Assembly (NCBI GenBank): GCA_041674105.1
Contig: JBAYWK010000001.1
Location: 82,190 to 146,189, forward strand
Direction of reading: 5' to 3'
DNA: 64,000 nt
Source: Minisyncoccota bacterium
GTDB lineage: Bacteria; Patescibacteriota; Minisyncoccia; Phycocordibacterales; DATDWN01
Shown: in pieces, positions 7,883-15,240 of the stretch
How the letters are laid out: every line of letters begins with the position of its first letter
Numbering within the stretch: position 1 is the stretch's first letter
Program-made: the position numbers and the translations under genes
Notes under the pieces: generated by a model
The model's input: only the letters and a program-made list of their open reading frames with translations
Told to the model about the DNA's origin: nothing
Databases searched by the model: none

Positions 7883-9079
7883 TTAGGCTACGATTTTTGT
7901 TACAACTCCCGCACCCACAGTCTTACCTCCCTCTCTGATGGCGAATTTTGTTTTCTCTTCCAAAGCGACAGGAGCTACTAGCTTCACATTGAATGTAACT
8001 GTGTCTCCTGGCATAACCATTTCAACACCTTCATTCAATGTCACATCTCCTGTAACATCAGTTGTTCTGATGTAGAATTGTGGCTTGTAACCAGAGAAGA
8101 ATGGTGTATGTCTTCCTCCTTCTTCTTTCTTCAAAATATAAACCTCGGCTGTAAATTCTGTATGAGGAGTCACAGATTTTGGTTTAGCTAAAACTTGACC
8201 TCTATGAATGTCTTCTTTTTTAGCACCTCTTAGAAGTATTCCGGCGTTGTCTCCGGCTAGACCCTCTTGAAGAGATTTATTGAACATTTCAATACCTGTA
8301 ACTGTATATTTAGCTGTATCTTTAAGTCCGACACATTCTATTTCTTCACCAACCTTAACAGTACCTCTTTCAATTCTTCCTGTTACTACAGTTCCTCTTC
8401 CTTCAATAGAGAAGATGTCTTCAACTGGCATAAGGAAAGGTTTCTCTACATCTCTCTCAGGAATTGGGAAGTAAGTATCCAAAGCATTAGCAAGTTCTAA
8501 AACTTTTTGTGCCCAAGGATCAGTGTTGTCTGCAGATTCCAAAGCTTTTAGACCAGAACCTCTTATAACAGGAGCCTCTTTTCCATCAAAACCTTGTGCT
8601 GTAAGAAGATCTCTGACCTCCTCCTCAACCAAATCAATAAGGTCATTATCGTCAACCATATCACATTTGTTTAGAAATACTATTATTTTTGGCACACCAA
8701 CTTGTTTTGCCAAAAGAACATGCTCTCGAGTCTGAGGCATCACACCATCTGTAGCTGCAACCACAAGCACAGCACCATCCATCTGAGCGGCACCAGTAAT
8801 CATGTTTTTAATATAATCAGCGTGACCTGGAGCATCCACGTGAGCATAGTGACGTGTTGGTGTCGTATACTCGTTGTGAGACAAAGCAATAGTAATACCC
8901 CTTGCTTTTTCTTCTGGAGCTGAGTCAATAGCATCAACTCCTTTTAGTTTCGCTGAATAACCTTCTCCAGCACGAGCTAATACATTTAACATAGCTGCTG
9001 TTAAAGTAGTCTTTCCGTGGTCTACGTGACCAATTGTTCCCACATTTATGTGTGGTTTTGAACGATCAAAATCTGCCAT
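7883..9079 (-). CDS. tuf: Elongation factor Tu.
   Basis: The gene starts at [25 protein letters not shown]. The ORF-finder N-terminal 42 aa are an upstream read-through and were trimmed to the ATG at 9079. Confidence 0.95.
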
Positions 9080-9204
9080 AAAATTTAATTTAATTAATTT
9101 AATAATTGTAAAAGTATAGCCCTCGAGAACACATGAATATACTCTGACAACTATCACCAATAAAGGTTTCTTATAAATAAGCGCCCAAAGACGCGGTAAC
9201 CACA

Positions 9205-9233
9205 ATATTAGACAAAAAGCAAAAAATAGTCAA
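9205..9233 (-). promoter_or_regulatory. sigma70-like promoter for tuf (TTGACT-17-TAATAT).
   Basis: The minus strand reads tacTTGACTattttttgctttttgtcTAATATtgtgg. Confidence 0.5.
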
Positions 9234-9254: not shown

Positions 9255-9542
9255 CTAAGCTAAAATAACTTCTTTTACTTTTTCTTTTTCTTCTTTTGCT
9301 AAAGAATCAAATGTAGGAATTTTGCCTTTCAAAAAAACTAAAACATCCTGAGGAGTTGTGTTATCTTCATCTAAAAGAAGATCAAACTCATCTTGTTCTT
9401 TTTCAGATAGAATATCTAGAGATCTAACCAAAATTGCTTGATACAATATATGACCAATACGGTCAACCATCTCCACCTGCTTATCGTGGTCGAGAGATCC
9501 CAGTTTCCATTCAGTTATTACTTCTTTTGATAAATTTATCAT
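9255..9542 (-). CDS. Hypothetical 95-aa acidic protein.
   Basis: The ORF is compact and abuts the 1156-aa gene with a 9-bp spacer. No family was recognised. Confidence 0.45.
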   Translation of the reverse strand: MINLSKEVITEWKLGSLDHDKQVEMVDRIGHILYQAILVRSLDILSEKEQDEFDLLLDEDNTTPQDVLVFLKGKIPTFDSLAKEEKEKVKEVILA

Positions 9543-9551
9543 ATTATTTTT

Positions 9552-12500
9552 TTAGTTTTTTAATAAATGACTTATATTTTCAAAAATATTAGTTTTTGAT
9601 GCTTTAAGTGCTCTCTCGTAAACATTATCAGAAGACCACCAAGAGCCTTCCACTCCTTCATCCAATAAAACCTGCGATCCTTTTTCTGTAATTATTCCAC
9701 TAGCAAAATGTTTGCCATTTAAATATAAATCTGTTTTACCAATTTCATTTGAGACATCTGTTACTGTTTGTATAACCCCTCCTTCAAAAGGAAGTTTGGC
9801 CGGTAAATAGCCTACATTTTTATACCCTTCTACCATCTTATCCATTGCTATATTGAATGCTTTTCTAACTTCTGTGTATACTTTACCCTCTTGGAGTTTA
9901 TCAGCTAAAGCCATAGGATATGCTCCTGGTTTAGGGTCTGAGATCTCTTCCGCTATAGCTTGATTATCATAAACTAGAACTTTTTTACCTTCTAAATCAG
10001 CCAAGCCCACAGTGTGGTTGTCTACGACAAGATTATCTAAAGAAGAAAAAGGTTTACCTCCTATTTCTATAATTTTTGTTTTAGTTTCTATATTTTCTGG
10101 AATATTTGAAATATTTTCCTGTGGAACATCTGGTATTTTGACTTTGCCAGAATCCATATCCACATCCATTGGAGCGGTCTTGCCAATGTATTCCCTTGGC
10201 ACAACTTCTCCTTCAGAATTTATTATCTTACCTTCAAATGAAGATACTTGACCTTTTTGTGAATCAAACAAAACATCTTTATTTCCGTTTAGATGCTCGT
10301 AACTTAAATTACCTTTACTATCTAAAGCCAAAGACTCCCCTTTTAGACCCGCCCCACTTAATTTGTGTTCTGGGTCATACATTCCAAACTCCTCAGCAAG
10401 TTTAGTTGATGGAGTTTCTACGAAGTGTTTTAGATTTTCTGGAACTTTGGCTACATTTCCATATTTTTCCAAAATCTTACCCTTCATTTCATCAAAAGTT
10501 TTTATAAAACCTTTTGATGAAAGCTCTACTTCAACAGTTTCTGGCTTTGCCACTTCAGAAATATTTACTTTTGGAGGTACACTCTCGGCTTGAATAGAAG
10601 GTTTTGAAGTTGGCACATTTTCTGCAGAAACTTTGGCTCCTCCCGCACTAATACTTTCAATAGAATGAAGTAAGGCTCCTGAAGCGACACTTGTTCCTAT
10701 ACCTGCACCCACCATAGCACCCGCTTTCCACAATAATTGTCTTTTCTTTTTGTCTTTTTCACTCTCATAAAAATCTCTGGCTTGTTTTTCTTTTTCAGCA
10801 AAATTATCTTCTGATATATCAGTACCATACTTATTTAAAAATCCTTCTTTTAATTTAGTATTATTTTTATCAAATTTATTTTGCAAAGCCCTACCTGCAA
10901 ATTGAGAAGTTGCTGCTCCCGCTGCTGCCCTCGCAACCCTATATCCTCCATAAGCAGCTACCCCAGCTAAAGGAAGTGCACCAAAAGCAAATGCTCCTGC
11001 TGTAACCAAAGTTGAGGATAGAGCTATTCTTGTAGCTGGATGTAATTTTTGCCATTTTTCCAGAGTTTTAGATAAAATTCCCTTCTCCAAAGGAGGCCTG
11101 CCAGATTCCATTACTTTATTGAATTTATCCATCTCTTGCTCTAAGGCTTTAACCAAATCTTCATTAAAAGAATATTCTCTTGTTTCAGCCGTAATAGCGC
11201 CAGTTAAAATAACTTCTTCTTTTTTTAAACCCTTAGCAAACAAATATCTAGATTTCTCTTTTTTTGCTTCTATATATACTCTCTCTAAACCTTTTAGTTC
11301 TTCTGGAATCTCATCTGATTTTGGCATTTGTTTTTCTACACCCAAATCAAACATTGCTTTAGCAAAAACATTTTTCTTCTGCCTGTGTTTATTCAAGAAT
11401 TCTTTCTTAGCAGAAGCATAATCCTCACGAGCTTTATCCAAGTTTATATCTATTTGTTCAGCTTTTTTAAAAAGTTCTTCAAAGTCATCTACTTCTGTTT
11501 TTTTAGAATTTTCCGGAATAAAAGGAGGAGCTATAATAGTTTCAGCTTTTATATCCAAAATTTGAGGTTCTTTTTGTGCAGGTTTTTCCTGCGGAGGTTT
11601 GGGAGATATAACCTCAGTTGGATTAACAGCCGGTATTTCATCTCTAGCACTTTTATCATTAATATCCTCTTTTGGTGTATAAAATTGGCCAACTTTATCT
11701 AAATCAATCTTTTCTTGCTCCTCCTTTGATATATCTACCACAGGGTATACTCCCCTATCATATAAAGGATCAAACTCTCTTGTACTCTCTTTTGTTTCTT
11801 CGTCTATAACAAAAGATCTTCTTGATTCTCTAGTTTCTTCATCGGGTAAGACTGGGATTTCAAATTGAGAAAGTTTGTTCAACTCTTCATTTTCTTTCAA
11901 GCCAGCAAGGTGATACATCAAATCTTTTTGATCGATATCTATTATTTTTAAATTAAAAGCATCATTTATTTCAGATCTAATCTCATTAAAAGATCTGGCA
12001 AAATCAATACCTTTATGTAGAGGAATAATACTCTCGGATTTTGGTAGACTTTTTTCAATATAATCGAAAAGATAGTTTTTTACTTCACCTAAACTCTTTT
12101 CTTTTGATTCTCTTTGATTGTTCAAAATATCAAAGGAAGGCTCTTTTTTTTCTTGCTCCTCCTTTGATATATCTACCACAGGGTATACTCCCCTATCATG
12201 TAAAGGATCAAACTCTCTTGTACTCTCTTTTGTTTCTTCGTCTATAACAAAAGATCTTCTTGATTCTCTAGTTTCTTCATCGGGTAAGACTGGGATTTCA
12301 AATTGTTGTAACTTTTCAGAATTAAACTCCTTTTTTTGTTCTGCGTATTTTTCATTAGACTCTTTTTCAATATCCTTAACTGTTTTTATAAAAGAATTAT
12401 CTAGCTCTGATTCTGACTCCACTTTTTTTACTGTGAATAAGGGTAAGGGGGAGCTCAATTCTTCAACTATTACATAATCACCTGCTATCTTTTTAACAGT

Positions 12501-13022
12501 GTAAACTTTATTGCTTACTGTCCAAACAACTTTGTCTCCTTTATTAAAATCTAATTTTTCTTCTTCAATTTTAGAAATAGGAATCTTCACCCCTTCTTCT
12601 AAAGGCAACCCCAGGATAGACATCATCTCTCTTTTTTGCTCCTTAGACACAAAGTCAGCCGAGAGGCTGTCTATAAACTTCTCTGCCCCTTCCCTATCTT
12701 TGATATACTGAGCATCAAAAACTAAATATTTTTTATAAGGATTTTCTGGCAGTTTTATTTGTAAATAATTTTTTAGTTCCTTTATAGAACCATCATTTAT
12801 CTCATTATTCTCCACTCTGGTATGCTCGGCAAGTGAGTTCATAGAAAGGTGATGAACATCTTCTTCTTCCACAACAAGTTCTATATCTGAAGGATTTTTA
12901 AATTTTGGGCCATCATACATAGTTTCTATTCTTTCAAGAGAATTCTTTTCAGAAGTTTCTTCTGGAGCGAGTTTAATATCTTCTGTTAGTTTATTATCAA
13001 ATTGTGACGAAAACCTAGGCAT
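9552..13022 (-). CDS. Giant 1156-aa hypothetical protein with charged low-complexity stretches, an internal duplicated 55-aa module and Gly/Ala-rich hydrophobic segments. It is inserted between fusA and tuf.
   Basis: A single intact ORF carries QFEIPVLPDEETRESRRSFVIDEETKESTREFDPL[H/Y]DRGVYPVVDISKEEQEK twice. Segments with GxxxG-like pattern (AGAFAFGALPLAGVAAYGG, AGAMVGAGIGTSVASGALL) may be membrane-embedded. Confidence 0.6.
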   Translation of the reverse strand: MPRFSSQFDNKLTEDIKLAPEETSEKNSLERIETMYDGPKFKNPSDIELVVEEEDVHHLSMNSLAEHTRVENNEINDGSIKELKNYLQIKLPENPYKKYLVFDAQYIKDREGAEKFIDSLSADFVSKEQKREMMSILGLPLEEGVKIPISKIEEEKLDFNKGDKVVWTVSNKVYTVKKIAGDYVIVEELSSPLPLFTVKKVESESELDNSFIKTVKDIEKESNEKYAEQKKEFNSEKLQQFEIPVLPDEETRESRRSFVIDEETKESTREFDPLHDRGVYPVVDISKEEQEKKEPSFDILNNQRESKEKSLGEVKNYLFDYIEKSLPKSESIIPLHKGIDFARSFNEIRSEINDAFNLKIIDIDQKDLMYHLAGLKENEELNKLSQFEIPVLPDEETRESRRSFVIDEETKESTREFDPLYDRGVYPVVDISKEEQEKIDLDKVGQFYTPKEDINDKSARDEIPAVNPTEVISPKPPQEKPAQKEPQILDIKAETIIAPPFIPENSKKTEVDDFEELFKKAEQIDINLDKAREDYASAKKEFLNKHRQKKNVFAKAMFDLGVEKQMPKSDEIPEELKGLERVYIEAKKEKSRYLFAKGLKKEEVILTGAITAETREYSFNEDLVKALEQEMDKFNKVMESGRPPLEKGILSKTLEKWQKLHPATRIALSSTLVTAGAFAFGALPLAGVAAYGGYRVARAAAGAATSQFAGRALQNKFDKNNTKLKEGFLNKYGTDISEDNFAEKEKQARDFYESEKDKKKRQLLWKAGAMVGAGIGTSVASGALLHSIESISAGGAKVSAENVPTSKPSIQAESVPPKVNISEVAKPETVEVELSSKGFIKTFDEMKGKILEKYGNVAKVPENLKHFVETPSTKLAEEFGMYDPEHKLSGAGLKGESLALDSKGNLSYEHLNGNKDVLFDSQKGQVSSFEGKIINSEGEVVPREYIGKTAPMDVDMDSGKVKIPDVPQENISNIPENIETKTKIIEIGGKPFSSLDNLVVDNHTVGLADLEGKKVLVYDNQAIAEEISDPKPGAYPMALADKLQEGKVYTEVRKAFNIAMDKMVEGYKNVGYLPAKLPFEGGVIQTVTDVSNEIGKTDLYLNGKHFASGIITEKGSQVLLDEGVEGSWWSSDNVYERALKASKTNIFENISHLLKN
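11712..11877. repeat. Intragenic direct repeat, copy a, about 165 bp.
   Basis: It is almost identical (1 mismatch seen) to 12150..12315 within the same ORF. Confidence 0.8.
12150..12315. repeat. Intragenic direct repeat, copy b, about 165 bp.
   Basis: See copy a at 11712..11877. Confidence 0.8.
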
Positions 13023-13061
13023 ATATACCTAATATAATATCTTCTTTAAACCTATTAAGCA

Positions 13062-13092
13062 ATAAAAAATCTCCACTTTTAGTGGAGATTTT
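13062..13092 (-). terminator. Intrinsic terminator downstream of fusA.
   Basis: aaaaaatctccacttttagtggagatttttt is a hairpin plus T-run. Confidence 0.65.
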
Positions 13093-13098
13093 TTATTA

Positions 13099-15240
13099 TT
13101 AACTTCTAGATTCTATAATCTGTTTTTCAATATTTGGTGGAACCACCTCGTAGTGATCAAAATGCATAGTGACAGACCCTCTTCCCTGAGTCATAGAGCG
13201 AATGTCTGTAGTATATCCAAACATTTCTGATAGAGGAACTTTTGCATGAATAACTCTAAGCTGGCCTCTTTCATCCATACCTTCTATCTGACCTCTCTTT
13301 CCTGAAAGTGAACCTGTTACATCTCCCATAAACTGCTCTGGCATTATAGCCTCTACTTTCATAATAGGTTCTAGAATAACAGGTCTAGCTTTTTTAGCGG
13401 CCTCTTGAAATGCTTGAGAAGCAGCAATCTTGTAAGCAATTTCAGATGAGTCCACATCATGATAAGAACCGAAAGTAAGCTCACAAGAAATATTTACCAT
13501 TTTGTAACCAGCTACAATACCTCTATCCATCGCTTCTTTAACTCCTTTTTCTACAGCAGGTATAAACTCCTGAGGAATAACTCCTCCTTTTATAGAATCT
13601 ATAAACTCAAAGTCATCATAACGACTAACATTTTTGGGTATTTTCGCTCCTTCAGGCAAATCTTCCATTCTCTTTATAGAAAGTTTTACGTGACCATACT
13701 GACCTTTACCTCCAGTTTGTTTAATATATTTATGTTCAGCTTCAGCACTTCCCAAAATAGTTTCTCTGTAAGCTACCTGAGGCTTACCAACATTTGCTTC
13801 CACAGTAAACTCTCTTTTCATTCTATCTATCATAATCTCTAGATGTAGCTCACCCATACCTGAAATGATAGTCTCTCCTGTCTCACTATCAGAAGACACT
13901 CTGAAAGTAGGATCTTCGTCTGAAAGTTTTTTTAGCGCCATACCCATTTTTTCCTGATCGGCTTTTGTTTTTGGTTCTATTCTCAGAGAAACAACTGGTT
14001 CGGCAAACTTAATAGGATCTAGAATGATAGGATTGTTTTCGTCACAGAAAGTGTGGGAAGTTTTTGCATTTTTAAGCCCAACAGCAGCTGCAATCTCTCC
14101 AGCAAAAACTTTTTTTACTTCTTCTCTATCATTAGCTTGAAGTCTGACAATACGTCCAAGTCTTTCTTTTTCTCCTGTGGTTGCATTATATATATATGAA
14201 CCAGACTCTATTGTTCCAGAATAAACTCTAAAGAAAGTAAGCTGACCAACGAAAGGATCTGTCTGTAATTTGAAAGCCAAAGCAGCAAAAGGTTCTGAAT
14301 CAGAAGCTTTTCTTTCTATTTCCTCTCCTGTGACAGGGTCGTGACCTTTTACTGGTGGAATATCTAGAGGAGAAGGAAGATAATCTATAACAGCGTCTAA
14401 TATAAGTTGAACTCCTTTATTTTTCAAAGCTGTTCCTGTAAAAACTGGGAAAAAATTATTTTCTATAGTAGCTTTTCTGATAACTTTCTTCATTGCCTCT
14501 ATCCCTGGTTCTACCCCATCTAAATACGCAGACATCATTTCGTCATCATACTCAACCACCTTCTCAACAAGTTCTGCTCTATATTTTTTGGCATCTTCTA
14601 AATAAGCTTCTGGTATATCTTTTTCCTTAATCTCAACACCCATAGGACCTTCAAAATAATAAGCTTTCATTTTCAAAAGATCTATAACAGCTTCAAAGTT
14701 AGCTTCCTCACCAATAGGAATTTGCATCCTAACTGCATTTTTATTTAATCTTTCCAAAATAGACTGGTAAGATCTTTCAAAAGATCCTCCCGTTCTATCT
14801 AGTTTATTTATAAAACAAAGTCTAGGAACATGATATTTGTCTGCTTGTCTCCAAACTGTTTCTGATTGAGGCTCCACTCCAGCAACACCATCAAATACCA
14901 CAACTCCACCATCCAAAACTTTTAGAGATCTTTCAACCTCTACAGTAAAGTCCACGTGACCCGGTGTATCAATAATATTGAATCTATGTCTCAAAGAAAT
15001 ATCTGCTCCCATATATGTAGGGTTCCAAAAACATGTGATAGCGGCGGCAGTTATGGTGATACCTCTCTCTCTTTCCTGTTCCATCCAGTCTGTCACGGCG
15101 GCTCCATCGTGTACTTCACCAATCTTGTGTGACATACCTGTATAGTACAAAATACGCTCTGAAGTTGTTGTTTTACCGGCATCAATGTGAGCAATGATAC
15201 CAAAGTTTCTAACTCTATCTAATGGATAATCTCTGTTCAT
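13099..15240 (-). CDS. fusA: Elongation factor G.
   Basis: The 713-aa protein starts …[18 protein letters not shown]… and carries the full EF-G domain set. Confidence 0.95.

Follow-up and report, generated by a model that had tools for sequence, protein, structure and literature searches.

A conserved gene pair between fusA and tuf of Paceibacteria/Parcubacteria, encoding a large, putatively membrane-anchored protein and a DUF5663 protein

In a Minisyncoccota bacterium, fusA and tuf are separated by a conserved cassette of two genes, which is inherited vertically and typifies a large Paceibacteria/Parcubacteria clade of ultra-small bacteria in the candidate phyla radiation (CPR). Both genes of the cassette are real and under purifying selection. 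The window, i.e. the whole stretch of DNA analysed, is 64,000 nt in length, and all features described here are on its minus strand. The gene order is fusA, a 1156-amino-acid (aa) open reading frame (ORF), a 95 aa ORF and tuf, as the original prediction had it. The upstream neighbour fusA (13099..15240) is a 713 aa ORF whose product, EF-G, is 81–88% identical to the EF-G of related loci, which carries EF-G Pfam domains. The large ORF (9552..13022) has the NCBI accession MFA7216474.1 and is annotated 'hypothetical protein WC095_00610'. The small ORF (9255..9542; MFA7216473.1) starts 9 nt past the large-ORF stop. The tuf gene (7883..9079) encodes an EF-Tu of 398 aa that is 87–95% identical to EF-Tu of related loci. 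A tuf start at TTG 9205 was rejected as an artefact of ORF extension, and the gene starts at ATG 9079, which gives the 398 aa found in relatives.

The same order and place of the gene pair are found in ∼24 independent Paceibacteria/Parcubacteria loci, at protein identities down to ∼24%. The fusA-large-small-tuf order was seen in loci L001, L003, L004, L005, L052, L054 and L055, as well as in metagenome loci, and it recurs in every related locus that has sufficient flanking DNA. This arrangement is far beyond chance. All named sources of large-protein homologues are CPR/Patescibacteria, mostly Paceibacteria/Parcubacteria, and the large protein is thus lineage-specific, as had been proposed. It is not a peculiarity of one genome: the cassette is conserved clade-wide, and the 95 aa ORF is the conserved DUF5663 partner of the large protein. 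The large gene is single-copy and its location is fixed. The large and small genes always travel together; a single contig (L053), which encodes an in-frame fusion of the anchor module of the large protein with a peptide deformylase, is without a DUF5663 gene. In one locus (L051), the DUF5663 gene adjoins a relative that has the helical and hydrophobic module only. There the gene order is reversed, and the neighbours are uvrD, MNT/HepT and rsmA, with no ribosomal operon context. Since the pair is kept in L051 despite its reversal and its place outside the ribosomal context, it is the functional unit, and the fusA-tuf address is a matter of clade inheritance.

Read from the sequence, the cassette is predicted to be a transcription unit of its own, with a terminator after fusA, its own promoter, coupled genes, and a separate, conserved tuf promoter downstream. 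A hairpin that resembles an intrinsic terminator lies directly 3′ of the fusA stop (13064..13094; AAAAAATCTCCAC-TAAAA-GTGGAGATTTTTT) and folds at −20.6 kcal/mol (RNAfold). An A-tract/stem-loop/T-tract follows fusA in 16 of 24 distinct loci, with differing, covarying stem sequences. The element thus has the marks of a predicted intrinsic terminator: a GC-containing stem-loop, a T-run, a fixed position and compensatory stem changes. A promoter-like site for the cassette (13034..13062) consists of a −35 TTGCTT (13062–13057), a 17 nt spacer and a −10 TATTAT (13039–13034) that sits 11 nt ahead of the large-gene ATG. In relatives it takes the form TTGCnn-17/18-TACAAT and ends 0–11 nt (typically 6) upstream of the ATG, a layout that would be of the leaderless type. 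In related loci, the small gene mostly begins −4 to 29 nt after the large one, which indicates tight coupling. The tuf gene had been credited with its own strong promoter, and a promoter-like site of the form TTGACT, 17 nt spacer, TAATAT is indeed present (9205..9233). It is kept as TTGACtatt-N-TTTTGtCTAaTAT in all 39 of 39 distinct related loci. It is followed, where the tuf leader is predicted to begin, by a short GC hairpin, GCGTCTTTGGGCGC, and a U-rich run (9181..9194); an equivalent hairpin and Ts are found in the tuf leader of most related loci.

An exhaustive profile search places the large protein in a family of 701 cluster representatives at E ≤ 1e-3, or 168 at E ≤ 1e-30, and a word search gives 5 to 13 close homologues. 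It is ∼50% identical to its L001 counterpart, versus 83–95% for EF-G and EF-Tu. No significant HMM match to the large ORF was found in Pfam-A, NCBIfam, PADLOC or PHROGs (every hit had E ≥ 0.04 and a score far from the cut-off), and HMM scans of 152 family members gave no recurring domain match. Comparison with solved folds gave no match either, and the C-terminal domain has no known fold relative. Domain and fold comparisons showed no GTPase, ribosome-binding, factor-binding or other translation-related domain. The large protein has a conserved module of ∼620 aa, always C-terminal in homologues, that comprises a helical part, one or more hydrophobic segments and, beyond a Pro-rich stalk, a globular domain of two lobes.

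The helical part (aa 513–664; 11031..11486) carries the alignment signature AREDYA...KNKxRxKK..FAK..DLG..KQMP...AYIEAKK...PPLEKGI..K.LEKW and is modelled by AlphaFold2 as helices and one beta-hairpin. It is common even to the most distant relative, P0155, in which the C-terminal domain is replaced by an unrelated one and the anchor module is retained. Two Gly/Ala-rich segments follow, which had been taken as putative membrane helices. Both are present, but convincing family-wide hydrophobicity is seen only in the first. Segment 1 (aa 665–692; 10947..11030) is a probable membrane anchor: over 19 residues, the Kyte-Doolittle value rises to 1.82 in the window protein, against a family median of 1.68, and values of 1.6 or more are seen in 64% of members. 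By hydropathy it therefore qualifies as an integral-membrane segment, taken as at least ∼19 residues with a mean of at least 1.6 and family conservation. Segment 2 (aa 767–787; 10662..10724), which is Gly-rich and weakly hydrophobic, does not, with a family median of 1.28 and just 7% of members at or above 1.6, and is a marginal transmembrane candidate. Between them lies a conserved Lys/Arg-rich helical loop (aa 693–766; 10725..10946) with 17 K+R and a pI of 9.7, modelled as a helix-turn-helix with pLDDT ∼70–78. Segment 2 is followed by a Pro/Ser/Val-rich stalk of variable length (aa 788–829; 10536..10661; pLDDT <50), which in the family has a median of 48 aa and 6 Pro.

The topology of this region may be considered from several properties. 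The number of K+R per 15 aa falls from 5.0 before segment 2 to 1.2 after it, and is alike on both sides of segment 1 (2.6 and 2.0). Hessa-scale sums over 19 residues are positive, with medians of +2.5 for segment 1 and +5.5 for segment 2, and Gly, Ala, Ser or Thr make up more than half of the residues in each. AlphaFold2 confidence is very low exactly at the hydrophobic segments, which are not packed into the helical module; membrane spans usually receive such low confidence when no bilayer is included in the model. The hydropathy and charge statistics are compatible with an N-in/C-out single-span topology, yet ambiguous. Were the two segments both to cross the membrane, the N- and C-termini would be on the same side. 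With the topology ambiguous, a surface protein, as had also been proposed, is a possibility.

The N-terminal region (aa 1–512; 11487..13022) is hypervariable, acidic (net charge −39) and of low complexity. In relatives, the stretch ahead of the conserved module varies from 27 to 1047 aa and is not conserved in sequence. A conserved short motif, FKNPSDIEL, is found near the N-terminus; of 122 full-length representatives, 43 have a recognizable N-terminal motif. Hydropathy analysis shows no signal peptide or N-terminal hydrophobic segment in the window protein, and two relatives have N-terminal J-like domains; thus this repeat-bearing region is probably cytoplasmic. The original prediction described two near-identical modules of 55 aa, encoded by 165 bp repeats with about one mismatch. 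The near-identity and the single mismatch (11762/12200, Tyr to His) are correct, but the direct repeat is 158 nt in length, encodes 53 aa, and has its copies 438 nt apart. Copy 1, QFEIPVLPDEETRESRRSFVIDEETKESTREFDPLHDRGVYPVVDISKEEQEK, spans aa 240–292 (12148..12305); copy 2, with Tyr replacing His and 99% DNA identity to copy 1, spans aa 386–438 (11710..11867). Recent duplication or gene conversion had been suggested as the source. Recent homogenization is evident, but both repeat sites are present as diverged QFEIP motifs in two relatives (P0003 and P0004) and are therefore ancestral, which favours gene conversion over a new duplication.

A globular C-terminal region of ∼330 aa had also been predicted. 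In the AlphaFold2 model (41 sequences) it is a confidently predicted two-lobed fold, with lobes at aa ∼830–940 and ∼996–1156 and a disordered linker between them. Lobe A (aa 830–940; 10203..10535; VELSSKGFI...GLKGESL.LD..GNL.YEHL) consists of three helices followed by a beta-meander, with pLDDT ∼90–95. The Pro/Glu-rich linker (aa 941–995; 10038..10202; pLDDT <50) is of variable length and has many indels in alignments. Lobe B (aa 996–1156; 9555..10037; L.DKFQDG...R.AF...PFEGG.I...LLNGKEIA.G...YERAFK) is built of beta-sheets, a long helix and a further helix at the C-terminus. Across the clade, the C-terminal domain keeps an identity of ∼25–30%.

The small ORF is acidic, as expected (pI 4.6), and NCBI names its product 'DUF5663 domain-containing protein'. 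Orthologues are 49–69% identical to the window copy and have an invariant LDILSEKEQ motif. The window copy scores 16.0 bits against PF18908 (E = 0.018), below the gathering cut-off of 23.7 bits; the L003 orthologue scores 27.2 bits, and precomputed matches at or above the cut-off are also found for orthologues in L004, L051 and L052. A full-text literature search for DUF5663 gave nothing, and its obligate pairing with the large protein seems not to have been reported before.

The best explanation overall, although a tentative one, is that this conserved, inherited cassette encodes a membrane-anchored scaffold between cytoplasm and envelope, together with a DUF5663 partner. Our best guess for the large protein is a scaffold that spans the membrane, and not a translation factor. 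Its N-terminal arm, which is long and disordered, would lie in the cytoplasm and bear short binding motifs. The small acidic DUF5663 protein would dock on the juxtamembrane helical module; this we infer purely from the gene pairing and the opposite local charge. The two-lobed C-terminal domain would sit on the far side of the membrane, on its flexible Pro-rich stalk, and make contact with a conserved part of the envelope of the cell itself. An external position is suggested by the drop in K+R across segment 2 followed by the stalk, by the variable linker between the lobes, and by the domain swap in P0155 in which the anchor module is kept. The protein would in this way connect the cytoplasm with the envelope, much as RodZ, MapZ or TonB do, in a housekeeping function in morphogenesis or the envelope. 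The position in the str operon would be an inherited address in a rearrangement-resistant block and not evidence of a role in translation.

A somewhat unlikely alternative is a membrane-tethered cytoplasmic factor, in which the two segments form a hairpin with both ends cytoplasmic and the protein, with DUF5663, anchors or regulates ribosomes or elongation factors at the membrane. A translation-associated factor had been proposed originally, and the fusA-tuf address, kept down to the lowest identities, is in keeping with it. The sole relative off that address (L051) overlaps rsmA, a ribosome-biogenesis gene, by 4 nt, which leaves room for a translation link, and the J-like domains of two relatives can be read in the same way. 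In L053, the C-terminal domain is replaced by peptide deformylase, a cytoplasmic enzyme that works on ribosome-bound nascent chains; if the fusion is genuine, the large-protein C-terminus is cytoplasmic. However, the deformylase part has a Met start of its own (MILPIV...) exactly where the two parts join, on a single contig without DUF5663, and the fusion may be a deletion or read-through product. The J-like domains carry HSD and not the catalytic HPD, and the charge bias of segment 2 and the Pro-rich stalk suit an external C-terminus better. The proposal finds no direct support: no similarity to ribosome- or factor-binding domains was found, the cassette appears insulated from fusA and tuf by the fusA terminator, its own promoter and the separate tuf promoter, which speaks against co-transcription being obligatory, and one distant member lies outside the ribosomal operon. 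Quite unlikely is a CPR-specific system of the large protein and DUF5663 by which the translation apparatus (ribosomes, EF-G or EF-Tu) would be physically tied to the membrane or envelope. Such a system would explain the class-wide fusA-tuf address and the occasional J-like or deformylase domains in relatives. It would represent a lineage-specific replacement for, or addition to, the known co-translational targeting and anchoring machinery in minimal cells.

CPR bacteria are widely regarded as episymbionts, and the C-terminal domain could be displayed outside as a surface adhesin that binds a host cell. Fast evolution relative to EF-G and EF-Tu, the repeats and indel-rich linkers, and the stalk after a hydrophobic segment fit this reading, which is nonetheless unlikely. 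The hypervariable, repeat-bearing part is the probably cytoplasmic N-terminal region, conservation is highest in the candidate external domain, and no adhesin-type domain or fold was found. Typical adhesin repertoires differ from a single-copy, syntenic and vertically inherited gene; its fixed location and the clade-wide conservation of its C-terminal domain argue for a housekeeping role. It is very unlikely that the protein is a soluble cytoplasmic scaffold with the Gly/Ala-rich segments as buried helices of a bundle. The positive Hessa-scale sums, the small-residue composition of both segments and the rarity with which segment 2 reaches the Kyte-Doolittle threshold would be explained, but not the hydropathy of segment 1 in most members or the low-confidence, unpacked modelling of the segments. 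Most improbable of all is an artefact (a mis-assembled, chimeric or frame-fused ORF) or a recent selfish insertion. The source is a short-read metagenome-assembled genome, and a 158 nt near-perfect repeat could in principle mis-assemble. However, the full-length architecture and neighbourhood recur in dozens of independent assemblies, so an artefact is effectively refuted for the large gene as a whole: it is real, intact and conserved, with homologues of the same architecture. In addition, the G+C content of the cassette matches its surroundings, mobile-element genes are absent, and the two sites of the repeat are ancestral.

The window has all four genes of the canonical str operon (rpsL-rpsG-fusA-tuf), in canonical order and orientation, followed by rpsJ-rplC-rplD-rplW. 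It differs in that the operon is split by the predicted terminator after fusA, the two-gene unit with its putative promoter and the separate tuf promoter, and in having additional small ORFs in the rpsG-fusA and rpsJ-rplC gaps. The small protein resembles Pfam DUF5663 (PF18908) proteins, which are likewise small (∼95–100 aa), acidic and helical. The hydrophobic segments share a Gly/Ala-rich composition and GxxxG/A-like spacing with glycine-zipper segments (NCBIfam YiaD_Gzip_OmpA); such matches on aa 680–728 are weak (E 0.1–0.23, 11–12 bits versus a cut-off of 175) and reflect composition only. An N-terminal J-like domain, as in J-domain (DnaJ, PF00226) membrane co-chaperones such as DjlA, occurs in 2 of the 152 scanned relatives (P0069 and P0090; best match E = 6.9e-15), with HSD in place of the canonical HPD; the domain scan found no PF00226 domain in the window protein. 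The closest parallels to the proposed scaffold are bitopic proteins of morphogenesis or envelope linkage, namely RodZ, MapZ (LocZ) and TonB/TolA. The RodZ HTH and DUF4115, the MapZ extracellular domain and TonB_C have no homologous domains in the large protein, and the likeness is one of architecture only. In these proteins the N-terminal part is cytoplasmic and has no signal peptide; it is followed by a basic juxtamembrane region, a hydrophobic anchor, a Pro-rich spacer and a folded C-terminal domain, and the C-terminal part of MapZ consists of two subdomains and a flexible linker.

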